Shown in pieces: positions 21,108 through 33,082 of a stretch of DNA of 35,056 nt. Each line of letters begins with the position of its first letter. Positions within the stretch are counted from its first letter, which is position 1. Origin of the DNA: Escherichia phage vB_EcoM-720R4. The stretch lies in the sequence record ON470603.1. One strand, written 5' to 3'. The translations under genes and the position numbers were made by a program. The notes beneath the pieces are model-generated. The model had not been told where the DNA came from. It did not search any database and saw only the letters and a list, made by a program, of their open reading frames with translations.

Positions 21108-22160
21108 TTATTTCCCCACCAGTTCACTTACCTCTTTCACCGTCTGATTAAACCGCTCTGACTCAAGTTCAACACCTAACGCCCGACGCCCCAGCGCCAT
21201 TGCTGCTTTTATTGTGGAACCGGATCCCATAAAGAAATCAGCAACCAGATCACCAGGTCGACTACTGGCATTGATTATTTGCCGGAGCATATCCGCCGGT
21301 TTCTCGCACGGATGTTTACCCGGGTAGAACTGAACGGGCTTATGCGTCCAGACATCGGTATAAGGCACGGAGACTGATACGGAGAAATAGCGCCGGAGAG
21401 ATTTAAACTCATCCAGCAATTCAGAATATTTGCGATTCAGTGAATCATAAGATGCCACCAGCTGGTGGTGTGGTTGTTCCAGTTGTTGTTCCTGAAACTT
21501 CTCTGCCGCTATACGGGAAAACAGTGCCTGTAACTTCCGATAGTCAGCCTCATTCGGCAACTGCCACTGACTGGCACCAAACCAGTGGGAAACCATATTT
21601 TTCTTACCTGTGGCTTCGGCAATTTGTTTTGCCGTTATACCCAGTTCGGCACGAGCATCCCTGAAATACGATATCAGCGGTGCCATTATGTGCTGTTTGA
21701 GTTCCCTTTCTTTTGCCGCATAGCCGTCACTTTTGCCGCGATATGGCCCCTGGTAATGTTCAGCAAACAGAACGCGCTCTGTGGCAGGAAAATATGCGCG
21801 CAGACTTTCTTTATTACACCCATTCCAACGTCCGGACGGCTTCGCCCAGATGATATGGTTAAGCACGTTGAAACGTTCACGCATCATGATCTCAATATCA
21901 GATGCCAGGCGATGCCCACAGAACAGGTAAAGGCTTCCGGCAGGTTTCAACACCCGCCAGAACTGGGCCAGACAGTGGTCCAGCCACTTAAGGTAATCTT
22001 CGTCCCCTTTCCACTGATTGTCCCAACCGTTAGGTTTCACCTTGAAGTAAGGCGGATCGGTAACAATCAGGTCAATGGAATCATCAGGCAGGGACTGAAT
22101 AAAATGCAGGCAATCAGCGTTGATTAAATCAACACTGTTTATTTTTACAGTATTTTTCAT
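21108..22160 (-). CDS. DNA methyltransferase (N6-adenine/N4-cytosine class, DPPY motif)
   Basis: 350-aa ORF with VTDPPYF motif near the N-terminus and a C-terminal AdoMet-binding-like region (FFMGSGST); no adjacent restriction endonuclease. Confidence 0.85.
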   Translation of the reverse strand: MKNTVKINSVDLINADCLHFIQSLPDDSIDLIVTDPPYFKVKPNGWDNQWKGDEDYLKWLDHCLAQFWRVLKPAGSLYLFCGHRLASDIEIMMRERFNVLNHIIWAKPSGRWNGCNKESLRAYFPATERVLFAEHYQGPYRGKSDGYAAKERELKQHIMAPLISYFRDARAELGITAKQIAEATGKKNMVSHWFGASQWQLPNEADYRKLQALFSRIAAEKFQEQQLEQPHHQLVASYDSLNRKYSELLDEFKSLRRYFSVSVSVPYTDVWTHKPVQFYPGKHPCEKPADMLRQIINASSRPGDLVADFFMGSGSTIKAAMALGRRALGVELESERFNQTVKEVSELVGK

Positions 22161-22310
22161 GGATCAGTAAGCGTAACTCTGGTAGGCTCACTCTGCTTTT
22201 GCGCTAAAGCAGTGGGCCGTGGTTCGCTTGTGACCAGTAAGCATGAGCGAATGGCTGGCAGGTGCTACCAACACCCACCAGCCGCCCATTTTCACAGCAG
22301 GAAACCGCCA

Positions 22311-22514
22311 TTACTGGCAGCGTCTGAATTTATTCCCGTACCCGCCGTTATCCTTCGCCAGACCCGCCAGAACTAACTGAGTCAGTATTAACTGGCACCG
22401 GGCTTCGCTTACTCCGGTAGTTCTCGTCATCATGCGTGGCGTTACCCACTTGTCAGCAGGTAAGAAATGAAGGACTGCGGCGGCGGTTTCTGTCATATCT
22501 TGCTGTTTTAGCAT
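22311..22514 (-). CDS. hypothetical small protein, possibly winged-helix DNA-binding
   Basis: ORF downstream of the candidate late terminator; start set at the internal ATG preceded by AAGGGA. Confidence 0.35.
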   Translation of the reverse strand: MLKQQDMTETAAAVLHFLPADKWVTPRMMTRTTGVSEARCQLILTQLVLAGLAKDNGGYGNKFRRCQ

Positions 22515-22636
22515 GTCTTTTTCCCTTCTGGTTAACATGACATACCAATAACTCTTGTCTAAAAATCCAGCAAGATAAAAAGTCAGTATTCACGACCACC
22601 AGCGTGTTTACTGTACTGCACCAAGTTTACAGGTAC

Positions 22637-22660
22637 AAAAAACCCGCTCAGTGGCGGGTT
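22637..22660 (-). terminator. rho-independent terminator downstream of Q (tR'-like)
   Basis: Minus-strand stem CCCGC-CACTGA-GCGGG followed by TTTTTT; about 40-60 nt downstream of the putative late promoter. Confidence 0.5.
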
Positions 22661-22699
22661 CCTAAATCTTATCAACGGTAGACATACAAAGCCCATCGT

Positions 22700-22740
22700 T
22701 GGGAAAATCTTATCCATATTTTTTGAAAAATGCAAGCATC
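22700..22740 (-). promoter_or_regulatory. candidate Q-dependent late promoter (PR'-like)
   Basis: Minus-strand TTGCAT (22735-22730), 17-bp spacer, TAAGAT (22712-22707), between the Q stop and the terminator. Confidence 0.35.
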
Positions 22741-22766
22741 ATGTCGTCATCTTCGGCGAAAACCAT

Positions 22767-23519
22767 TTATCTTGTCACCTTTCTCAATTGTATCTCTGCA
22801 TATGCTTCTTCCTGCCAGCACTTTGTAACCAGTTTATCAATGACATCTGCATATCCTTTGTACCACTGATAATCCGTCAGGTCTGGTACCAGCTTCTGGA
22901 CATGATGCCGCGCCAGTGTGGTTGGTAAACGGCTAAACCGGTTTCCATTGCAACGCCCACAAATCTTATAAACAGGCGTGCCATGAAGCCGGGTCCTTTT
23001 TTCATCCAGGACAATACCTTTACCCTTACACCCTCTGCACGCTGTGCTGACTTCTCCCTTACCATGACAATGCTGACATAGTTCCTTCACCCACTCTTCC
23101 TTGATAACAGATTCCCCGCTTCTGGAGTGTTTCACCACTTCGCGCAATACATTATGAAATCCAGTACCAGCACAATGCTCACAGCGAGCCTTACTTGCCG
23201 CAGACCTGGAATAATCAGCAAAGGCAAAATTCACAAGGTAAGGGATGATCTGTAACCGGGTTTCTTCACTCAATTTGTTCAATGTCGGGTTATCCAGTGC
23301 CATCGCGTAATTGAGCAGACCTTCAATCGCAAATTGAGGATCCTGAACACCAACTTTTGCCAGGAATAAGGCAAACCCAAGCGGTGCTTTCGACTGCACC
23401 ATCCCCTGCGCAGCCATCACATCCGTAATCGTTAAACCACCTGAGCCTGTCGCCGGTGCGTCATCGCTCAATTTTGGAGATTTTGGGGAGTAATATTTTG
23501 GTAAGGCTTCAAGGTTCAT
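22767..23519 (-). CDS. late-gene antiterminator Q (lambdoid Q family, Cys-rich zinc-binding region)
   Basis: CEHCAGTG ... CQHCHGKGE ... CRGCKGKG ... CGRCNG cysteine clusters; last gene of the early rightward operon, ahead of the late promoter; start at an ATG with GGAG RBS; the track ORF extends to 23561. Confidence 0.75.
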   Translation of the reverse strand: MNLEALPKYYSPKSPKLSDDAPATGSGGLTITDVMAAQGMVQSKAPLGFALFLAKVGVQDPQFAIEGLLNYAMALDNPTLNKLSEETRLQIIPYLVNFAFADYSRSAASKARCEHCAGTGFHNVLREVVKHSRSGESVIKEEWVKELCQHCHGKGEVSTACRGCKGKGIVLDEKRTRLHGTPVYKICGRCNGNRFSRLPTTLARHHVQKLVPDLTDYQWYKGYADVIDKLVTKCWQEEAYAEIQLRKVTR

Positions 23520-23532
23520 GCTCGTTCTCCAC

Positions 23533-24528
23533 TTACGCCAATACGCCAATTGCCAGCGCACGATCGATAAAACGAAATATCAGCTCCAGCTGAGAGCCAT
23601 ACTTCTCTTCAAATGCCACGGTATCCGCATGCAGCTCGTCGTGATGCTTTCTGCACAAAGGCAACACAAAGAGGTCATGCGCTTTTGTACCCATTCCACC
23701 CTGACCGTGGCCTATCAGGTGGTGGGGATCATCAGCAGGCTTTCCACAACATGCACACGGCTGTGTCTTAACCCAGCGCGTGTACTTTTCATTAACCCAG
23801 CGGCGGCGTTTTGGGCGTAACATAAAAGACTCCGGCGACTCCGGATCCACTTTCAGCGCCAGCACCTTTTTCGCCTTATCCTGGATGATGCTGGTGGCAG
23901 GAACCGAAGGCACAAGGTCACTTTCCCGGGTGACAGACGGCACAACAGGCTTCGGTAATCTCAGTGCCTTACGGGCTGCACTTTCCGGTAAGGCATCCGC
24001 CAGGTCATTACGAATCAGCCACCAGCACAGTTCCGGCATTGTCACGGCATGGTTGTCATCAAAACCGAGATCCCGACGGACTACAGACAACACCCAGCGG
24101 GCACAGTTATCCGTTGCCATTGATTCCAGCCGTTCCGTGAACTGATCGCGCAGCTGGTTATCGCAGTGCCAGCACAGACGGATCGCGCCCGGCGCGTGTC
24201 GCATTGTGGTCATGTTCTCGCTGTGCCAGTCGGAATGAGGCCACTGGCAGCCTTTTTCACGAAGTAACCAGCTTTCAAGACATTCCACGCCACCAGCACG
24301 ACGGATCACTGCCTCATTGCGGAACACGGCCCTAACGGCAGGATCATCCGCCAGCGGTTGTGATGCCGCCGGAACGGCACCACTGGCGAAAGATGAATAA
24401 CGTTCCGGCTCAGGCTCCAGCAGGACACGCCCCTGCATAAACAGGGGCATCAGCTCTGAACCTGGTCTGAACAATACAATCCCCATACGCGGGGCTATTT
24501 CAGGGGTCAGTAGTGCTCTCACGGTCAC
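23533..24528 (-). CDS. DUF968-family protein (nin-region protein with C-terminal Cys/His motif)
   Basis: 331-aa ORF with CACCGKPADDPHHLIGHGQGGMGTKAHD...PLCRKHHDELH at the C-terminus; positioned between KilA-N and Q. Confidence 0.7.
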   Translation of the reverse strand: MTVRALLTPEIAPRMGIVLFRPGSELMPLFMQGRVLLEPEPERYSSFASGAVPAASQPLADDPAVRAVFRNEAVIRRAGGVECLESWLLREKGCQWPHSDWHSENMTTMRHAPGAIRLCWHCDNQLRDQFTERLESMATDNCARWVLSVVRRDLGFDDNHAVTMPELCWWLIRNDLADALPESAARKALRLPKPVVPSVTRESDLVPSVPATSIIQDKAKKVLALKVDPESPESFMLRPKRRRWVNEKYTRWVKTQPCACCGKPADDPHHLIGHGQGGMGTKAHDLFVLPLCRKHHDELHADTVAFEEKYGSQLELIFRFIDRALAIGVLA

Positions 24529-24529
24529 C

Positions 24530-25339
24530 TCAATGAACGGTATCGAGCAGCTTTAACAGCTCAGGGAATCGGGATTCGAAGAAATGCGGCTGCGTCTCAC
24601 GCGGATTTGCGGGACTGGTGATGTTCTTGCCGAACATGCAGCCTTTCGCCGTCAGCGACCAGAATTTTTTGATGTTGTTAATCCCGGTACGGCTGTATCG
24701 TTCGCGCTGCTCGACGATCCCCAGCTTCACCATCTGGTGATATGCCTGATTAGCCGTCAGGCGGATACCATACTGCTTCAGCAGTGCACTCAGCGACAGC
24801 GTCGGGCGGCTTGAGCCATCAGGCGCGTCAGCAGGTGCATCAATGGCATAGCGCGGTGCCAGATTCGGTAAGCCAACAGCCTCCTGGAGTTTCTGACAGG
24901 CCCCAAGCACAGATGAGTTAGACAGATTTAACTCCCGGCGCATAAAGTCCAGCAGAATCACGCCAGCCTGCATCTTGTCAGCCGCCTGTCCGGATAATTT
25001 TTCCGGTGCGCTGGTTACCATATCGAAAGTACGGATCACCTTCAGATGGAATGACGGGCTGATCCACATTGCATAGGCATACACCAGTTCCTTACAGACA
25101 TACGTTCCCCGTTCATTTCCCCCATGAATCACACTCACCGGGTCAACACCCAAATTCTGGGTGTTGGTTAATTCATGAACAAGCTCAACAGTTTGTTGGC
25201 TGGAAAGAAACTTTCCTGGCTCCTTGGTTCTGGCATTTGCACCAGATGCTACTGCTGCGCGATGCAGATCGTTCAGGCTGTAACGCCCATAAGCATCACG
25301 ACGAACTTCAATACCATCAATAACCATCAGATTATTCAT
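24530..25339 (-). CDS. KilA-N domain protein (antirepressor-like)
   Basis: 269-aa ORF whose N-terminus resembles KilA-N domains (GIEVRRDAYGRYSLNDLHRAA...). Confidence 0.7.
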   Translation of the reverse strand: MNNLMVIDGIEVRRDAYGRYSLNDLHRAAVASGANARTKEPGKFLSSQQTVELVHELTNTQNLGVDPVSVIHGGNERGTYVCKELVYAYAMWISPSFHLKVIRTFDMVTSAPEKLSGQAADKMQAGVILLDFMRRELNLSNSSVLGACQKLQEAVGLPNLAPRYAIDAPADAPDGSSRPTLSLSALLKQYGIRLTANQAYHQMVKLGIVEQRERYSRTGINNIKKFWSLTAKGCMFGKNITSPANPRETQPHFFESRFPELLKLLDTVH

Positions 25340-25358
25340 ACTTCGTTTCTCCTCTTAA

Positions 25359-25748
25359 TCAGGCGGCTGCACCCGCCGTTTTCTCGTACTTACTGATAGT
25401 GATTTCGACCTTCCCTTCCGGGATAACCGGCCCCCACTCCACCAGCATTCTTTTCACCTGGCTGTCGTCCACCCACACACCCGCGTGGGTCAGGGCGTCA
25501 AACAGCGCCTTGTTATAGTTGTCCAGATCGCGAAGCCGGTTATCCGGAGGAAACAACACGATCTCCACTGAAGCTGGTGCCGACGTTGGTTTCGGCAAAC
25601 GACGTAACTGCTCAATGATGGCTGCACACGCTGCGCTCTGGAATTTTCGCCCCGCCGCGCTTATCAGGCTCTTACCTGCAAGCGCCCCTTTGTTGGGGTG
25701 TCGCCAGTACGTGTTCACGCTGGGCGGAAAAGGCAGTATTAGCTTCAT
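25359..25748 (-). CDS. rusA: RusA-family Holliday junction resolvase
   Basis: 129-aa ORF with DLDNYNKALFDALTHAGVWVDDSQV, typical of RusA; nin-region position. Confidence 0.8.
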   Translation of the reverse strand: MKLILPFPPSVNTYWRHPNKGALAGKSLISAAGRKFQSAACAAIIEQLRRLPKPTSAPASVEIVLFPPDNRLRDLDNYNKALFDALTHAGVWVDDSQVKRMLVEWGPVIPEGKVEITISKYEKTAGAAA

Positions 25749-26071
25749 ACTTTCAGGCCCCTCTCATGTAACCAGTGGGCTGCACGCAGCCTGGCGTTTG
25801 CCTCACCGGCAAGCAGTGCGCGGATAATCCCGACCGCCTCGCTGTCGTCGTCCTTCACCGCGGTATGAAGCGTGATGCCCCGGGCCACGCCACGCTTTAT
25901 CGTGATGACGCCTTTTTTCTCCAGTGCGCGAAGATGCTCCACCGCTGCATTCACTGAACGGTATCCCAGCATGGTTGCCACCTCCTGATTGGTTGGCGGG
26001 AAGCCACGTTCTTTCTGATAAGAAATCAGCATATCCAGCACCTGCTGCTGGCATTGAGTTAACGTCGTCAT
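25745..26071 (-). CDS. LexA-DNA-binding-domain-like protein lacking a protease domain
   Basis: 108-aa ORF; N-terminal LTQCQQQVLDMLISYQKERGFPPTNQEVATMLGYRSVNAAVEHLRALEKKGVI resembles the LexA winged-helix domain; no S24 peptidase region. Confidence 0.55.
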   Translation of the reverse strand: MTTLTQCQQQVLDMLISYQKERGFPPTNQEVATMLGYRSVNAAVEHLRALEKKGVITIKRGVARGITLHTAVKDDDSEAVGIIRALLAGEANARLRAAHWLHERGLKV

Positions 26072-26754
26072 GCCGCCATCTCCCTGACCAGTTTTTCTGC
26101 CTGCTGGCGAACCTGCGCCAGAAAGGCCTCACCACATGCCTCAAGTTCATCGCGCCCGATGTAGCTGATTGCCGGTCCCTTCCAGGTCTTGTCGAAAACA
26201 GCAATAGCACCAGCGAAGAAAGCGCCTGTCGGCACCTGCTTCTCATCCTTCGGGATAAACCAGGCAGGCAGTTCAAAACCAATACGCCCGCGAATAAAAG
26301 CAATATGATCTGCATCTTCCGGCCACCACACTTCGCTGGTGGCAGCTTTGATCAGGAAAACATAGCGCCCGCCTTTATCACGCATGGCACTGGCATGCTT
26401 CATGATGTAACGCATGCCGGTGATGTATTGCCCCTCATGCTGACTGGCGCGGCTGTATGGGGGATTACCAAAGGCAGCACCTTTAAGCTCCGCAAGGCGT
26501 TCTGACCAGTCATGCGCCAGCGCGTTGTCTTCCGCCGTGTAATACGCAGCACATTTGGCGTTATCACCGTCAGTGAACAGATCCAGAACAAACGGGCCAA
26601 ACAGGGTGTTAATTCCCCAGAAAATGTTGTCCGGCGTGCGCCACTGATCGCCCACTTCCTTCAGTTCATGGGCTGGTTTGTTCCGCAGTTCCGCCAGCGC
26701 CTGGCAATATTTATTACTCATTAAGCCCCCACGTAATTCCCTGAGAGATACCAC
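26068..26754 (-). CDS. phage Dam-like DNA N6-adenine methyltransferase (NPPY motif)
   Basis: GNPPYSR catalytic motif; an alternative start at 26721 (MSNKYCQ...) would abut the upstream gene's stop. Confidence 0.85.
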   Translation of the reverse strand: MVSLRELRGGLMSNKYCQALAELRNKPAHELKEVGDQWRTPDNIFWGINTLFGPFVLDLFTDGDNAKCAAYYTAEDNALAHDWSERLAELKGAAFGNPPYSRASQHEGQYITGMRYIMKHASAMRDKGGRYVFLIKAATSEVWWPEDADHIAFIRGRIGFELPAWFIPKDEKQVPTGAFFAGAIAVFDKTWKGPAISYIGRDELEACGEAFLAQVRQQAEKLVREMAA

Positions 26755-27215
26755 TCTTCACCTGATGCAGCCCGCTTACTGCTTTTCCGTAAACACCGTT
26801 CACGACGCGCCAGAAAATTGTTTCGTTCTGGCTGGGAGTGGCTTTCACGGAATGCCGCCATCCACACCGTTGCAGCACGACGGTATAAGCCCCTCGACTC
26901 CAGTTCTTCAGCCTGGCGGGTCAGGCACAAAATCACCCGGGGGTCGTTAGTGCCGACATAGAACTTGCGCACAGGTCTGGTTTCACGAACTGGTTGTGGT
27001 TCCGGCTCCTGCGCTCTCTCAGTCAGGCGCGAGAAATGTCTGCGTGTATCTCCTTCACAACGGTGAGCCACACGCCCACTCTGACGTAACTTGCTTGCTG
27101 ACTGCAGAACGCGCTGCCGTGAGTAACCTGCAAAAGCATCCGCAATGTCTCCGGAAGTACACCCCGGATGGGCTTCAATGAATTTCTGAACTTCATTCAA
27201 AAGACTCATGATCAC
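26721..27215 (-). CDS. PerC/Pch-family transcriptional regulator-like protein (YfdN-like)
   Basis: C-terminal region LESRGLYRRAATVWMAAF...RRERCL resembles the PerC-family motif; 164 aa. Confidence 0.6.
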   Translation of the reverse strand: MIMSLLNEVQKFIEAHPGCTSGDIADAFAGYSRQRVLQSASKLRQSGRVAHRCEGDTRRHFSRLTERAQEPEPQPVRETRPVRKFYVGTNDPRVILCLTRQAEELESRGLYRRAATVWMAAFRESHSQPERNNFLARRERCLRKSSKRAASGEEWYLSGNYVGA

Positions 27216-28153
27216 CCCCTGAATCCTGCCGGGATCTGGCTGTAGTCCACGTTGTCGTAACTGGATTTGAAGTACGGATCTTCACGTTTTTCTGTGTATG
27301 TGCTGACGGACGGCGATAAGCGCAGGGAAAGCTCATCCCATTTTTCCCGCAGCTTCGACGGGCTGAGCACGTTACGGCACCAGAACGGATCGCGGCTGAC
27401 GCGGCTGTACATCTCGCAGATTTGTTTGTGAGTACGACCATCCTGCACACACATCAGGCGAATTTCGTTTGCCCAGGCTGTCCAGTTCGGTTCTTTGGGA
27501 CGAACCACCTCGCCGTCACATTCGGCAGCCTGCTCGTACAGGGCGATGATTTTTTTCCAGAGCCACTGTGCGCAGGTCAAATCATCCTGCGTCCCCCACT
27601 GGCGTTTTTTAGGGCTGAATACAACCGCATCAGGATGGCGAGTTAAAAAATCCTGTTCAGCCGTCTGCGTGTCCGGTTGCGAAGCGTCCGGACGAGAAGG
27701 TTTTTTATCTGACGGATCATGTTTTGATTTTACTGACGGATCCCCGCCAGATTCTGACGGGTGAAAACCCGCTTTTTTGCCAGATTTCGACGCATCAAAT
27801 TTTGACGGGTCAGATTTTGATGCGTCAGATTTTGACGGGTCAGAATCTGACAGTTGAGAAAATGCCGCTGCCTGAAGCTTCGCAACGTTAAGCTGATAAA
27901 CATTCGACGCATTGCGGTTACCCTGGCGACGCGCCTTACGCGTTAACCAGCCTTCTGCTTCCAGCCGTGCGATAGCCGTTCTGACGGTACTCATCCCCGC
28001 GCCAATCTGGCGGGCAATGGTTTCAATTGATGGCCAGCACACACCTTCGTCATTACTGAAATCAGCCAGGCGGGCCATAATTGCCACGCTGGATAATTTC
28101 ATGCCTGACGCTGCGCAACCATCCCATACATAGCCGGTTAATTTAGTGCTCAT
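27212..28153 (-). CDS. replication initiation protein (O-like, HTH N-terminal domain, iteron-containing)
   Basis: 313-aa ORF with N-terminal helix-turn-helix region and a central Ser/Asp/Lys repeat linker encoded by DNA iterons; located downstream of cro and the CII/YdaT-like gene. Confidence 0.7.
   Translation of the reverse strand: MSTKLTGYVWDGCAASGMKLSSVAIMARLADFSNDEGVCWPSIETIARQIGAGMSTVRTAIARLEAEGWLTRKARRQGNRNASNVYQLNVAKLQAAAFSQLSDSDPSKSDASKSDPSKFDASKSGKKAGFHPSESGGDPSVKSKHDPSDKKPSRPDASQPDTQTAEQDFLTRHPDAVVFSPKKRQWGTQDDLTCAQWLWKKIIALYEQAAECDGEVVRPKEPNWTAWANEIRLMCVQDGRTHKQICEMYSRVSRDPFWCRNVLSPSKLREKWDELSLRLSPSVSTYTEKREDPYFKSSYDNVDYSQIPAGFRG
27722..27853. repeat. iteron array (about 7 direct repeats, consensus TCAGATTTTGACGGG) inside the O-like gene: candidate replication origin
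   Basis: Tandem 14-15-bp repeats read directly (e.g. TCAAATTTTGACGGG TCAGATTTTGATGCG TCAGATTTTGACGGG TCAGAATCTGACAG). Confidence 0.55.
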
Positions 28154-28501
28154 GACCGACCTCTATTTCCCTGAATTTACGACGAAACTGTTCGAGCGGA
28201 CTGAAGCACTCATGCTCATAGCCTTCGCGGAGGTAGATAACCCGTTGTGTTTCCGGTTCCCAACGAATGACTCTGACGGGCACTCCGTAGTGATCTTTGA
28301 ACCAGCGGTTAACTTGTCGCAAAGGACTGTCTCCTTCTGCCGGTTGAAATCCCCCACAGCCCACTCTGCAAAGCTGTGGGTTACAATTTCCCTGTCACCT
28401 GGTACATTCACTGCATAGCAATACTCCACCTTCGCTTTTCCACCCGGTACAGGAAGCGCAATCAGTTGCGAGCGACGGTAGTGTGTTGTTAAACTGTTCA
28501 T
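28143..28501 (-). pseudogene. small early gene apparently split by a frameshift at a G5 run (two overlapping ORFs, 28163-28501 and 28143-28364)
   Basis: The N-terminal half of one frame and the C-terminal half of the other both look protein-like; the frames switch at the C5/G5 run at 28351-28355. Confidence 0.35.
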
Positions 28502-29082
28502 GCGTTAGTTTCTCCACAACCAGAAGCAATCGACGCCACGACGCCCGGAGCTGCACACTCGCGGGCGTTACTCTTTTCCGGCGCACAAAAAACACGAAAT
28601 AACAGTGTTAAATGCTCCTGCCACTTCGCCATTACTTGGTAGCTGTTCTCTTCGATTTGCTCACGCTCAGCTTGGTCAATAACTCCATCAGCAGTTGCCT
28701 TGCGTAAGTACTGGGAATGCTTGCCAATCCATTCTATTGACTCCATCAGCCGCTGATTAATGTCACCATTGTCAATGTCATCAATGACCACCAGCGGCAC
28801 AAACACCCCATTACTACGACGGGCTATTGCATCTGTTACATGCCTGGTACCACTGGCATCCTGTAAAACCATGGCCCACTCAAGTGGAAAAATTTGATCC
28901 CCACCGCTACGCAGTCTGTTATGCAATTGATCTTTTGCTGGGGTGATATCATCAGATTTATACAAACCAAGAATTTCTGCTGCTTCCTCATAGCCATGAG
29001 GTAAATCAGCAATCGTTCTTCGTATTGCTGCCACCAGCCATGCTGGTTGTTTATCAACTTTCCATTCAGGTTCTTTACCCAC
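28498..29082 (-). CDS. YdaT-like / phage CII-like regulatory protein
   Basis: 194-aa ORF immediately downstream of the Cro-like gene; assignment mainly by position and loose resemblance. Confidence 0.5.
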
Positions 29083-29109
29083 GGTTAATTCCTCATTTCT
29101 GTGGTGTTT

Positions 29110-29307
29110 TTATGCCGCAGCACTGTTAGTCTTTTGATATAAAGACACGTCAACTTTCAGTTTCCCGTTAGTAATTTTTTCTAACTGGTACGCTCGGCCT
29201 TCAGGAATAATCTCAGGCCACTCTGAAACAGACGGATGCTTAATACCTAGGGCTTCGGCGGTTTTACAAACTCCGCCGAAATAATTAATCACGTCGGATT
29301 TCCGCAT
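29110..29307 (-). CDS. Cro-like repressor (YdaS/Cro family HTH)
   Basis: 65-aa ORF divergent from the CI-like gene; HTH-like segment GGVCKTAEALGIKHPSVSEW; RBS GGGAGA. Confidence 0.7.
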   Translation of the reverse strand: MRKSDVINYFGGVCKTAEALGIKHPSVSEWPEIIPEGRAYQLEKITNGKLKVDVSLYQKTNSAAA

Positions 29308-29402
29308 TTCTGTCTCCCGTTAAATTACGTTAAGCAGAAATGTAGGATATCCAACATACCAATGTCAAGAATCCTACATGGGCATGTGGTAGGATTGCCT
29401 AC
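29308..29402. promoter_or_regulatory. right operator/promoter region: PR-like promoter for cro (minus strand: TTGACA 29368-29363, TACATT 29344-29339), 17-bp operator TGTAGGATATCCAACAT (29341-29357) plus additional TGTAGGAT-type half-sites
   Basis: Divergent cI/cro intergenic region; near-palindromic operator with GGATATCC core; promoter hexamers read directly. Confidence 0.6.
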
Positions 29403-30056
29403 ATGATGAACATGAGTGATCGTATTCGCCAAAGGCGAAAAGAACTGAACCTGACACAACAAGCACTGGCTGATTTGACTGGTGTGAACCGTGTCACGGT
29501 TACTGGATGGGAAAAGGACGACTACCAACCAAATGGAGCCAACCTTCAAGCCCTAGCCAACGCACTTAAATGCGATCCTCTGTGGCTTGTTAGCGGAAAA
29601 GGCTCGCCTGAACCAAAGATAAATCTAAAACCTGAAATATTCGCAGTTAAAAAAGTCCCCCTCATCTCGTGGGTTCAGGCGGGTTCATGGACAATGACGG
29701 AGCCTGGTGTCAGGAAAGAAGATGCTGAAGAGTGGGTTTATACTACCGCCCTTGTATCAGAAATGGCATTTGCACTACGGGTCCGTGGTGATTCAATGAC
29801 CAATCCCCTCGGCTCACCATCGATACCAGAAGGTTCTATCGTTATCGTAGAGCCAGATATTATTGATACAGAGTGTATTAACGGAAAAATCGTTGTTGCC
29901 CATATCAATGGTGGGCAAGAAGCGACACTCAAAAAATTTGTTGAGGACTGGCCGAACAGGTATCTCGTCCCACTAAATCCTAACTATAAAACTATTGAAT
30001 GCGGTGAGAACTGCAGAATAGTTGGTCTTGTCAAACAAGTAATAATGGATTTTTGA
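29403..30056 (+). CDS. CI-like repressor (N-terminal HTH, C-terminal S24 LexA-like peptidase domain)
   Basis: 217-aa ORF with HTH (LTQQALADLTGVNRVTVTGWE) and a C-terminal domain with Ser ... Lys catalytic residues (GDSM ... TLKKF); RBS AGGA 7 nt upstream. Confidence 0.9.
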   Translation: MMNMSDRIRQRRKELNLTQQALADLTGVNRVTVTGWEKDDYQPNGANLQALANALKCDPLWLVSGKGSPEPKINLKPEIFAVKKVPLISWVQAGSWTMTEPGVRKEDAEEWVYTTALVSEMAFALRVRGDSMTNPLGSPSIPEGSIVIVEPDIIDTECINGKIVVAHINGGQEATLKKFVEDWPNRYLVPLNPNYKTIECGENCRIVGLVKQVIMDF

Positions 30057-30080
30057 CACATCTTCCTCACTATCGCAAAA

Positions 30081-30102
30081 CCGGGGTATCCCCGGTTTTT
30101 TT
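30081..30102 (+). terminator. rho-independent terminator after cI
   Basis: CCGGGG-TAT-CCCCGG stem followed by TTTTTTT, 25 nt after the cI stop. Confidence 0.7.
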
Positions 30103-30119
30103 ATGAGCCTATCTTTTTA

Positions 30120-30172
30120 TGTAGGATAACCAACATAAACTCTTGACACTCACATGTTGGATATCCTACATT
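30120..30172 (+). promoter_or_regulatory. left operator/promoter region: PL-like promoter (TTGACA 30143-30148, TACATT 30167-30172) flanked by two 17-bp operators (30120-30136 variant; 30154-30170 identical to the OR operator, inverted)
   Basis: The exact 17-mer of the right operator recurs here as its reverse complement; same -35/-10 hexamers and spacing as the PR-like promoter. Confidence 0.55.
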
Positions 30173-30289
30173 TGTTTTTAGAGTTGTGGTGAATGCGCAG
30201 GCTGATGCGCGAAAGACATTGCAGCTATTGCGGAAAAGAGCTGTTCGGCGGGGCCATTAAACGCCCGTATCTGGAGGTTAAAGAACAAA

Positions 30290-30565
30290 ATGAAAGTCCA
30301 GATTTTAAACAATAGTGGTGAAGTCGTTTGGTCATACGACATAGCCGCTCCTGTAGATCAGAGCGGCGATAGCTGGACCAATGGGAAACATCAGATTATG
30401 GCTGGAGTTGTATTCTCTTTACGCCGTGCTTTGGAACAGGCTGAAGTATTTCCATCAGACCCTGAATGGAAATGGCCTTTTTCTATTTGTCCAAATTCGG
30501 AGAGCACATTTCAGAAAATTGGTCAGAAAGTCGCACTCGAAGAGCATCAGCCAACTGTTTCCTGA
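30290..30565 (+). CDS. hypothetical protein, first ORF of the leftward (PL-like) operon
   Basis: 91-aa ORF with GGAGG RBS; acidic, not N-like; its 3' end overlaps a convergent minus-strand ORF. Confidence 0.35.
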   Translation: MKVQILNNSGEVVWSYDIAAPVDQSGDSWTNGKHQIMAGVVFSLRRALEQAEVFPSDPEWKWPFSICPNSESTFQKIGQKVALEEHQPTVS

Positions 30566-30728
30566 TTTTTTCAGGTAACTCGTCGGCATCGCAGAAACAA
30601 CAACGCTCGATCATGTTGAAAGCCGATTCGTAGAACTGTTTCTGCTGAGTGTCGCTGAGACAGGAAAAGAGCGACGTTACGATGATTTTATTAATTGCAT
30701 TATCAAGTTCTTTTTCATCAAAAGTCAT
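30483..30728 (-). CDS. hypothetical protein encoded antisense to the PL-like operon
   Basis: 81-aa ORF with strong RBS (AAAGGAAAA, 6 nt spacer); opposite orientation to all neighbouring early-left genes. Confidence 0.4.
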   Translation of the reverse strand: MTFDEKELDNAINKIIVTSLFSCLSDTQQKQFYESAFNMIERCCFCDADELPEKIRKQLADALRVRLSDQFSEMCSPNLDK

Positions 30729-31165
30729 TTGATTTTCCTTTTATGTATACGGGCTTAAAAGGATACCACCGAGCCTGAAGTGGTGAAAAGACAGGCACAT
30801 AACAGCTAAGTATTTTCAACCAGAGAGAATCCTTAGCGTTGTGGTGAATGCGGCTCAGCGCACGCGGGTTAAGGTTGAGGCTGACAGTCGACCTTCTGTG
30901 GATACCCACCCGCCTGGTGTGCAACCTTCGCCAGGCACCGGGAGGCACCCGGCACCACAACTTTATGCTGTGTGTAGTCCTCGCGGTACCAGTTTGTACA
31001 CTTGCTTCCGGCTGGTACCGCTCTTTTTACAAAACAGAGAAGAGCATCACCGGACGACGGGCTCATAACCCAATCCATCCGGGCGGCTGCCACCGCAGGT
31101 GTTCTTCTCTGTTTTGTGGAGAAACCAACCGACCTTGCAGGGTCGATATGATGAGGAGCAGCAAA

Positions 31166-31528
31166 ATGGCTAGCGAACGCAGTACTGATGTGCAGGCATT
31201 TATCGGGGAGCTGGACGGCGGCGTATTTGAAACCAAAATCGGCGCAGTTCTCAGTGAAGTCGCTTCCGGTGTGATGAACACGAAAACCAAAGGGAAGGTC
31301 TCACTCAACCTGGAAATCGAACCATTTGATGAGAACCGTGTGAAAATCAAACACAAACTCTCATATGTTCGCCCGACTAACCGCGGGAAAATTTCCGAAG
31401 AAGACACCACCGAAACGCCGATGTATGTCAATCGCGGTGGTCGCCTGACTATTCTGCAGGAAGACCAGGGACAATTACTGACTCTTGCCGGTGAACCTGA
31501 CGGAAAACTCCGCGCAGCAGGTCATTAA
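31166..31528 (+). CDS. hypothetical conserved phage protein
   Basis: Start set at ATG 31166 preceded by GAGGAG; the track ORF 30848-31528 extends upstream through a structured non-coding region and is probably not translated there. Confidence 0.5.
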   Translation: MASERSTDVQAFIGELDGGVFETKIGAVLSEVASGVMNTKTKGKVSLNLEIEPFDENRVKIKHKLSYVRPTNRGKISEEDTTETPMYVNRGGRLTILQEDQGQLLTLAGEPDGKLRAAGH

Positions 31529-31593
31529 TATCGTTCTTAATTAACTGATTATTTATCTCATCACTGAATATCTTAATATAGTGAGGACTTATT

Positions 31594-32418
31594 ATGTCTC
31601 AGAACTTAGACTCAACCGCAATTAATCAAATCCATGCCCTTATTTCTGCTCAGGGTGTTAATGAAATTATCAGTAAGATTGGTGCCGATGCTGTGGCATT
31701 GCCTGAGAATTTCCGCATTCATGATCTGGAAAAATTTAATTTAAATCGCTTCCGTTTCCGTGGCGCGCTTTCCACTGCCAGCATCGATGATTTTACCCGT
31801 TATTCTAAAGATCTTGCAGATGAAGGCACCCGCTGCTTTATCGATGCTGATAATATGCGTGCCGTTAGTGTGCTTAACCTGGGTACTATTGATGAACCAG
31901 GTCACGCAGATAACACCGCCACTCTCAAACTGAAAAAGACAGCACCGTTCTCTGCTCTGTTGTCTGTTAACGGCGAGCGTAACTCCCAGAAGTCACTGGC
32001 AGAATGGATTGAAGACTGGGCCGACTACCTTGTGGGCTTTGATGCGAATGGTGACGCCATTCAGGCAACAAAAGCGGCTGCGGCAGTCCGTAAAATCACG
32101 ATTGAAGCAAACCAGACCGCTGATTTTGAAGATAATGACTTCAGCGGCAAACGCTCCCTGATGGAGTCTGTCGAAGCGAAGACCAAAGACATTATGCCAG
32201 TGGCATTTGAATTTAAATGCGTTCCGTTTGAAGGCCTTAAAGAACGTCCGTTTAAATTACGCCTCAGCATTATCACTGGCGATCGTCCTGTACTGGTTCT
32301 GCGCATTATTCAGCTGGAAGCGGTGCAGGAAGAAATGGCTAACGAATTTCGTGATCTGCTTGTTGAGAAATTTAAAGACAGCAAAGTAGAAACCTTTATT
32401 GGTACTTTCACCGCCTGA
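31594..32418 (+). CDS. YfdQ-like protein (DUF2303)
   Basis: 274-aa ORF; gene order with the following HD-domain gene matches the yfdQ-yfdR-yfdS-yfdT arrangement of the E. coli CPS-53 prophage as I recall it. Confidence 0.65.
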
Positions 32419-32545
32419 TTTCATTACTGCAAATGCCCCTGCGGGGGCATTTATGGAAACATAATTTACTCAATAATCGCCGGATAGTGAGGGCTTCCTT
32501 TTACCAGAATTCAGCGCGGTGCAGCGCATATACGTGGAGAATAAA

Positions 32546-33082
32546 ATGTCATTTATTAAAACTTTTTCCGGGAAGCATTTTTATTATGACAGGATAAATA
32601 AAGACGACATCGTTATTAACGATGTCGCGGTTTCCCTTTCAAATATCTGTCGCTTTGCAGGACATCTTTCACACTTCTACAGCGTCGCCCAACATGCGGT
32701 GCTTTGCAGCCAGCTGGTACCGCAGGAATTTGCTTTTGAAGCGTTAATGCATGATGCAACAGAAGCATATTGCCAGGACATCCCCGCACCACTGAAACGC
32801 CTTCTTCCTGACTATAAACGGATGGAAGAAAAAATAGACGCCGTAATCCGTGAGAAATACGGGTTACCTCCTGTTATGAGCACGCCAGTGAAATATGCCG
32901 ATCTCATTATGCTGGCAACCGAACGCCGCGATCTCGGGCTTGATGATGGCTCTTTCTGGCCTGTACTGGAAGGTATCCCGGCGACAGAGATGTTCAAAGT
33001 TATTCCACTGTCACCAGGCCATGCCTACGGGATGTTTATGGAACGTTTTAACGAGTTATCGGAGTTACGCAAATGCGCATGA
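32546..33082 (+). CDS. YfdR-like HD-domain phosphohydrolase (5'-deoxynucleotidase family)
   Basis: H...HD metal-binding signature (HFYSVAQHAVLCS ... MHDATEAY); start set at MSFIKTF with GGAGAA RBS. Confidence 0.65.
   Translation: MSFIKTFSGKHFYYDRINKDDIVINDVAVSLSNICRFAGHLSHFYSVAQHAVLCSQLVPQEFAFEALMHDATEAYCQDIPAPLKRLLPDYKRMEEKIDAVIREKYGLPPVMSTPVKYADLIMLATERRDLGLDDGSFWPVLEGIPATEMFKVIPLSPGHAYGMFMERFNELSELRKCA

Follow-up and report, generated by a model that had tools for sequence, protein, structure and literature searches.

The 35,056-nucleotide stretch of Escherichia phage vB_EcoM-720R4 that we analyzed (sequence record ON470603.1, referred to here as the window) is an SfV/CPS-53-like lambdoid prophage that carries a short direct repeat at the start of its early-left operon. 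The exact 15-mer GTTGTGGTGAATGCG is present on the + strand at both 30183-30197 (copy 1) and 30838-30852 (copy 2), as pointed out in an earlier note on this DNA that proposed nut- or put-like antitermination or processing signals, or binding sites for an early regulator. Upstream of the repeat lie the cI repressor gene (29403-30056, + strand) and an intrinsic terminator that follows it (30077-30106, + strand; the inverted repeat AAAACCGGGG/CCCCGGTTTT and then a T run). The early-left promoter PL (30143-30172, + strand) has the form TTGACA-18-TACATT with 10/12 matches, and is the sole + strand sigma-70-like promoter site in 29950-31250. It is bracketed by two OL operators, at 30119-30136 and 30154-30171, that are copies of the 18-bp palindrome ATGTWGGATAWCCWACAT, and an exact match to the same palindrome at 29340-29357 constitutes an OR-type operator in the cro-cI intergenic region. 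These three copies define the repressor operators at OR and OL, with partial copies at about 29371-29404, and overall the palindrome has 6 matches versus 0.06 expected. Because the palindromes that bracket PL are also found between cro and cI, we conclude that PL is under repressor control, in line with the PL-like transcript of the earlier note. Transcription is inferred to start near 30179-30180, in agreement with the note's estimate that copy 1 begins ~4 nt past the PL start. The gene order after PL is orf33, a convergent 81-aa open reading frame (ORF), yfdP (31166-31528, + strand, the first gene past the RNA region described below), yfdQ and yfdR.

The 15-mer is not significant by itself. 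The window contains three exact direct repeats of at least 15 nt versus a mean of 0.7 in Markov-1 simulations, and 52% of the simulated sequences contain at least one such repeat, so that an exact 15-mer repeat is within chance and its length was rejected as an argument. No further match to GTTGTGGTGAATGCG with up to two mismatches is present in the window, and the likeness between the copies reaches 20 nt with 1 mismatch, TTAG[A/C]GTTGTGGTGAATGCG. The significance of the repeat comes from homology alone, since each copy forms the 5' end of one of two related RNA genes. The 15-mer divides into GTTGT, the outer and covarying part of a helix that we term P1; GGTG, the invariant inner part of P1; AAT, a junction that is likewise invariant; and GCG, with which a second helix, termed P2, begins.

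Copy 2 opens a complete small RNA (sRNA) of the STnc100 family that is composed of a 124-nt core, a 21-nt linker and an intrinsic terminator. The Rfam model of STnc100 (RF02076) matches 30808-31030 with 49.1 bits (E 8.2e-08), above its gathering score of 47, and is the sole Rfam family found in the entire window. The canonical core (30838-30961, + strand) is a multi-helix junction closed by P1, as indicated by Rfam, by the minimum free energy (MFE) fold, by covariation and by R1, a covariance model of the canonical core built in this analysis, with which the copy 2 core scores 81.1 bits. RNA structure prediction, which the earlier note had recommended as a check, folds copy 2 into this P1-closed core, with GUUGUGGUG (30838-30846) paired with CACCACAAC (30953-30961) to enclose five inner hairpins. 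Copy 2 itself supplies the 5' strand of P1, the AAU junction and the first 3 nt of P2, which occupies 30850-30865 in a GCGGC/GCACGC form. Directly before the 3' strand of P1 is the hairpin CCGGG-AGGCA-CCCGG (30938-30952), a family hallmark that is absent after copy 1. P1 is followed by the 21-nt linker UUUAUGCUGUGUGUAGUCCUC (30962-30982, + strand), which is unpaired in the centroid fold and is a candidate seed, and then by the intrinsic terminator GCGGTACCAG...CTGGTACCGC with a trailing TCTTTTT (30983-31028, + strand), which is recognized by its inverted repeat, by its fold and by the Rfam alignment. Thus, copy 2 combines a score above the gathering threshold with P1-GGUGAAU, the 3' hairpin and a terminator after a short linker, the sequence and structure features by which STnc100 membership was judged.

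Covariation indicates that the canonical structure is maintained as RNA. In an alignment of 82 distinct members from viral contigs, SfV and phage P1, 97.2% of cells are paired versus at most 48.6% with slid partners, and the observed covariation was reached by none of 500 shuffles. The outer P1 pairs covary (CG 29, UA 24 and UG 10 at one pair; GC 37 and AU 33 at another), and P2 covaries as well, with CCC.CC, GCG.GC and CUU.UC forms and pairs among CG, GC and UA. The P1 helix of phage P1, GUUGCGGUG/CACCGCAAC, is a clean compensatory change. G-U pairs are tolerated far above A-C in both the canonical members and the divergent relatives described next. The invariance of CCGGG-AGGCA-CCCGG in this alignment is by selection, as the hairpin was the search pattern.

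Copy 1 is the 5' remnant, the first 86-90 nt, of a divergent STnc100 relative that we name type A and that is not in Rfam. Copy 1 holds the P1 5' strand (GTTGTGGTG), the AAU junction and the first 3 nt of P2, and the hairpin that the earlier note had described on its 3' side is present at 30195-30210 (GCGCA at 30195-30199, loop GGCTGA, TGCGC at 30206-30210) and is the type A P2. The remnant extends over 30179-30268 on the + strand; this segment differs by 1 mismatch from the type A RNAs of Stx2c_EH0430 (L001 2620-2709) and mEp460, after which the sequences diverge. In Stx2c-converting phages, a complete type A RNA that begins with the same 20-mer and GCGCA hairpin lies directly after an identical PL, with the structured RNA starting at +4, and ends in CCGG-AGAUCAGCA-CCGG, then UCACCACAAC, then a terminator identical to that in the window. 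The same type A RNA is present in mEp460, where the sequence before it differs. With the copy 2 RNA, type A has P1, AAU, the P2 hairpin, the 3' hairpin, CACCACAAC and the identical terminator in common, and its interior differs. R1 scores intact type A at 20.7 bits over its full length and the window fragment at 4.7 bits; Rfam did not detect type A at E up to 0.1, and copy 1 has no RF02076 match even at E up to 10. Type A members are recognized by a 5' GGUGAAUGCGCAGGCUGAUGCGC and a 3' GCCGGAGAUCAGCACCGG(N)CACC that form a 7-bp P1. Copy 1 has only the 5' half, which is exact, and no type A 3' half was found in the window within 3 mismatches, so copy 1 is a fragment and not a member.

Intact type A RNAs are widespread. 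In 131 phage records their two ends, 5' and 3', have 93-100% identity and their interiors vary, and the phages that carry them include T1-like Klebsiella phages, ~158-kb Klebsiella myophages, N4-like phages and Erwinia phiEt88. Among 62 distinct viral-contig members that were anchored on both conserved ends, in which the whole element spans 58-212 nt, the three P1 pairs beside GGUG/CACC are standard in 62, 62 and 61 members, with G-U in 1, 2 and 1 members and with 4, 4 and 6 pair types, respectively.

The juxtaposition of a fragment and a complete RNA is explained by mosaic recombination. Past 30268 the window diverges from type A into ATCTGGAGGTTAAAGAACAAAATG, where orf33 has its ribosome-binding site and start, and from 30287 onward it matches SfV at 98% identity across orf33 and the complete RNA. 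We conclude that copy 1 was left behind when a type A phage recombined with an SfV-type module. The joint itself, ATCTGGAGGTTAAAGAACAAA (30269-30289, + strand), carries the orf33 ribosome-binding site and is absent from intact type A. Escherichia coli 730V1 has this joint after a ClpX zinc-finger gene, where it reads as the same ATCTGGAGG, and provides an additional crossover inside the shared 15-20-mer that joins complete-copy upstream sequence to a type A interior. Conservation in relatives, which the earlier note had also put forward as a check, does not extend to the pair: SfV has orf33 and the complete RNA without copy 1, and the Stx2c phages have copy 1 only, in its intact form. The intact type A arrangement is present in 572 of 5,426 complete E. 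coli genomes and that of the window in 90, and phage SKA5 is one sequenced phage with the latter. Thus, conservation within the family and mosaic recombination account for the repeat, which is not a cooperating pair of signals.

Several observations accompany this picture. The 730V1 mosaic (L005 1310-2160) has, following an XRE-family repressor gene, the ClpX-type zinc-finger gene, a truncated orf33 start and unrelated sequence, and continues with the upstream flank of the complete RNA fused in the 15-mer to a type A fragment, then orf33 and the complete RNA. Tandem cores occur elsewhere, with 2-3 per locus in 9 of 120 viral loci. Eight such multi-core contigs (L016, L024, L043, L058, L079, L085, L067 and L023) have 2-3 canonical cores on one strand at a spacing of 255-971 nt, which is exactly 484 nt in four loci.

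Taken together, the two 15-mers are probably the homologous 5' ends of two phage sRNAs of the STnc100/PasD superfamily that were placed in tandem on the PL transcript by mosaic recombination and of which the complete one would act as an sRNA. The evidence above establishes the RNA identities and the recombination, and the function is drawn from relatives. Eleven STnc100 copies are present in EDL933, most of which are transcribed and one of which was confirmed by northern blot (PMC5331693). EcOnc27, which overlaps an STnc100 downstream of stx2, is Hfq-bound (PMC12711010), and PasD1 and PasD2 are abundant, stabilized by Hfq and linked to many partners in RIL-seq (PMC8550237). For PasD, STnc100_4 and EcOnc27 there are reports of stability that depends on Hfq and of northern blots (PMC8550237, PMC5331693, PMC12711010), and a common ancestor of PasD and STnc100 has recently been proposed (bioRxiv 10.64898/2026.05.13.724894). 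PasD2 matches R1 at 28.6 bits, and we read a TTGACT / TAAAAA promoter in its sequence just upstream of P1. The published estimated start of PasD2 coincides with the first bases of P1, and the published PasD seed falls in the linker between P1 and the terminator (PMC8550237).

A model consistent with this evidence and with these relatives runs as follows. In Stx2c phages intact type A is the very first product of the same PL. In the window, recombination cut type A at 30268 and joined it to an SfV-type module comprising orf33, the antisense ORF and the complete RNA. Loss of repressor would allow transcription from PL and production of the complete sRNA, which would fold via P1 and stop at its own terminator. 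By analogy with what is reported for PasD, the sRNA would act in trans with Hfq through the single-stranded linker, 30962-30982 being a candidate seed that is placed as in PasD2, and the structured core may serve as a stabilizing or protein-binding scaffold.

There are also observations that weigh against this explanation. No promoter of its own directly before copy 2 passed the sigma-70 scan, the weak -10-like hexamer GAGAAT at 30825-30830 having been seen by eye only; expression of copy 2 would therefore need PL read-through across 655 nt. In an equilibrium fold of 30179-31030 the 3' strand of P1 pairs with copy 1 with P ~0.999 and with copy 2 with P ~0.001, since copy 1 offers the longer helix (13 nt long, formed with 30953-30965 and 92% complementary). 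This pairing is probably precluded by folding during transcription and by ribosomes translating orf33, but the remnant may not be inert and could disturb how the RNA behind it matures. It is also unusual for a plain base-pairing sRNA to combine a very conserved core and a variable middle, and PasD2, which is reported to be bound by CsrA, dominates CsrA-bound chimeras (bioRxiv 10.64898/2026.08.12.744399).

The fold just described is the basis for an alternative in which copy 1 is a remnant riboregulator that competes with copy 2 for CACCACAAC, leaving a misfolded core or a giant 780-nt loop with altered maturation or termination of the sRNA. The strong computed preference for copy 1 speaks for it, but an equilibrium fold of an 852-nt RNA ignores both the co-transcriptional order of folding and the ribosomes on orf33, the arrangement is the less common of the two (90 vs 572 genomes), and recombination accounts for it without selection on the pair; we consider such a regulator unlikely. 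A position at the very beginning of the PL transcript could also suit a cis-acting antiterminator of the put kind, with RNA just after PL binding polymerase and giving read-through of 30983-31028 and 31024-31122 into yfdP and the early-left genes that follow it. The earlier note was right that no N-like gene is evident, as none is present among the ten ORFs scanned against Pfam, where a Q-type antiterminator (22767-23561) is the only antitermination factor, and the two terminator-like structures between PL and yfdP imply that some read-through is needed; the +4 start of the structured RNA in Stx2c phages would fit as well. However, R1 and Rfam place family copies only on the PL side of the window with none in the PR operon, and the HK022 immunity region, where putL and putR should lie, is without an R1 match. 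The architecture is a five/six-helix junction in 124 nt and not two stems in ~70 nt (PMC9378689). In addition, the family occurs in unrelated contexts such as the ban operon of phage P1, downstream of stx2 and the tRNA clusters of T1-like phages (PMC12370729), and its relatives are reported to be discrete Hfq-bound RNAs that end at their own terminators (PMC8550237, PMC5331693, PMC12711010), so that the put-like reading appears quite improbable. Lambda-type nut sites served by an N-like protein share the same attraction of lying at the PL transcript start and have next to no chance of being correct, given that neither copy has a boxA/boxB arrangement, that the only boxA-like string, GCTCTTTTTAC, is the U tract of the terminator, and that the N-like protein and the PR-operon copy are both missing from the ORFs and operon scanned.

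Explanations that place the function in the DNA or in a protein fare no better. GTTGTGGTG and CACCACAAC form an inverted repeat in the DNA and the shared 15-20-mer has served as a crossover point, as could be expected of early-regulator binding sites or of the terminal inverted repeats of a small mobile element. But the repressor sites are 18-bp palindromes while the 15-mer is non-palindromic and absent from the PR/OR region, G-U is tolerated well above A-C, and the internal hairpin P2 covaries too. Moreover, elements within 1 kb of a tRNA gene (45 of 132 canonical and 13 of 120 type A) always share its strand (45/45 and 13/13), and family RNAs have been observed on northern blots. The preference of G-U over A-C, the covariation of P2 and the strand shared with tRNA genes all point to an element at the RNA level, and we consider DNA-level sites very improbable. 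It could also be argued that copy 1 opens a small protein gene, MRRLMRERHCSYCGKELFGG..., with its start codon inside the 15-mer, as the ATG at 30193 opens a 40-codon ORF with a CxxC motif and a ClpX zinc-finger gene occupies this locus in E. coli 730V1. The ORF, however, is without a significant Pfam match while the 730V1 protein matches zf-C4_ClpX at 1e-10, the type A interior is hypervariable with no conserved ORF, and canonical members have no ATG at that position, so that a coding role seems extremely improbable. What endures of the earlier note's interpretation is that the repeats belong to structured, non-coding RNA-level elements, for which a processing role may be considered, whereas antitermination and regulator-site roles are unsupported.

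Beyond the preferred explanation of two homologous sRNA 5' ends, a bolder and rather doubtful proposal is that STnc100, PasD and type A constitute one phage-wide modular class in which a 7-bp helix and fixed end hairpins scaffold a hypervariable cargo. In such a class the role of the conserved scaffold would be to bring in a host protein (Hfq, CsrA or an RNA-processing enzyme) and not to serve as a seed, and the orphan strand of copy 1 could gate downstream folding. The class may have spread across temperate, T1-, T4- and N4-like phages of enterobacteria and beyond, and its RNAs may be the first products of early promoters or be made within tRNA operons.

The orf33-like gene (30290-30565, + strand, 91 aa) belongs to the SfV-type module and has a strong GGAGG ribosome-binding site and no Pfam family; the convergent 81-aa ORF (30483-30728, - strand) overlaps its end by 83 nt and likewise has no Pfam family. 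In identical E. coli genomes, RefSeq places two hypothetical proteins here. A very stable long hairpin (31024-31122, + strand) with a stem of ~25 bp (-59.7 kcal/mol, z = -4.9) lies between the sRNA terminator and yfdP; it includes the U tract of that terminator and is identical in an Stx2c phage and mEp460 and near-identical in SfV. A second terminator is one candidate role for this hairpin, and RNase III-type processing of the PL leader is another. A candidate third family copy at 32420-32531, which scores 15-17 bits with R1 and is conserved in relatives, was rejected as it is only the GCCCC-UGC-GGGGC terminator hairpin after yfdQ.

On the PR side, C4 antisense RNA and isrK are present in the Stx2c phage (L001 394-582), mEp460 (L002 1-157) and SfV (L003 204-392), and have no match in the window at gathering thresholds; thus, the PR-side module of the window differs from that of its relatives. 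About four tandem 15-bp units (CAGATTTTGACGGGT) at 27781-27844, inside the O-like replication gene (27212-28153), are probably origin iterons, and these units also occur upstream of yfdP in the K-12 CPS-53 remnant (L128 4440-4510). K-12 CPS-53 was rejected as a source of transcript data, as yfdP is preceded there by a rearranged fragment of the replication gene without an RNA copy.

Protein annotations commonly cover these RNAs. A 226-codon ORF (30848-31528) extends in a single frame from within copy 2 across the RNA, the terminator and the long hairpin into yfdP. In E. coli 730V1 the RNA is overlaid by a RefSeq 'frameshifted hypothetical protein', and hypothetical proteins stand at this place in several phage records. 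The ORFs annotated as hypothetical proteins over the RNA are likely mis-annotated sRNA. In Klebsiella phage Bullseye (158 kb, L129), a type A-like element (1999-2111, 28.4 bits) and a canonical core (2930-3061, 78.8 bits) lie ~900 nt apart in a run of annotated 33-60-aa hypothetical proteins near a tRNA-Met gene, and these ORF calls probably cover non-coding RNAs. Other members near tRNA genes include the family RNA of IME207, located ~100 nt upstream of tRNA-Ser and tRNA-Arg, and the canonical core of phage P1, which the C1-controlled ban operon carries with tRNA genes on one side and tciA on the other. The viral contig L237 has a 222-nt type A element whose variable interior holds a tRNA-like T arm (GCGGGTTCGATTCCCGC). 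A riboswitch-like leader was rejected for the family, as the downstream genes differ wholly by context (yfdP, tciA, an esterase gene and tRNAs).

These results replace a candidate antitermination system with a documented sRNA family and indicate that PL of these lambdoid prophages, which have no N, first yields a small structured RNA, over which genome annotations often place 'hypothetical protein' ORFs. What is new is only moderately so, namely an uncurated and widespread type A branch with conserved ends and a variable middle that is absent from Rfam. As the type A ends are near-identical in very different phages, the function of the conserved scaffold is worth direct experiment.

For completeness, we compare the window RNAs with known systems. 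Because the family often adjoins tRNA genes, we considered T4 rnaC and rnaD (species 1 and 2), which resemble it as small stable phage RNAs co-oriented with tRNA genes, as part of the family is. The rnaC RNA differs in having a true tRNA-like T arm, and homology was rejected, as R1 has no match at either RNA and its E<=1 matches, of which the best is 0.15, are elsewhere in the T4 tRNA region. The HK022 putL and putR sites are similar in being structured RNAs immediately after the PL of an N-less lambdoid phage, but differ in architecture and size and in that put copies are downstream of both PL and PR; a one-way test with the R1 model only gave no match better than E 0.49 in HK022 27600-33000 and none in 22000-30000. 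PasD1 and PasD2 (EcOnc13; Hfq- and CsrA-associated sRNAs of EPEC prophages) have the P1 5' strand, GGUGAAU, P2, linker and terminator in common with the window RNA (PMC8550237; bioRxiv 10.64898/2026.05.13.724894), and the PasD transcript starts at P1 as type A does at PL. PasD differs in that its 3' hairpin is degenerate, its promoter is its own and constitutive-looking, it is located near Q and a sialate esterase gene, and its seed UGUGAG is absent from the window linker. STnc100 (RF02076), a gammaproteobacterial prophage sRNA family that includes EcOnc27/sRNA103, shares P1, GGUGAAU, P2, the invariant CACCGGGAGGCACCCGGCACC and the terminator with copy 2. The window member nevertheless stands in the PL leader upstream of yfdP, rather than past stx2 or Q, with a P2 of the GCGGC/GCACGC form and no evident promoter of its own, and is preceded by a truncated relative. 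That relative is a piece of type A, which is found in Stx2c phages, mEp460, IME207 and many others with a P2 of GCGCA-GGCUGA-UGCGC, a 3' hairpin GCCGGAGAUCAGCACCGG and an interior whose length varies greatly. Of this RNA the window retains the 5' part alone, copy 1 and the next 71 to 75 nt matching it with 1 mismatch, while the P1 and terminator of type A are the same as those of the window's complete copy.

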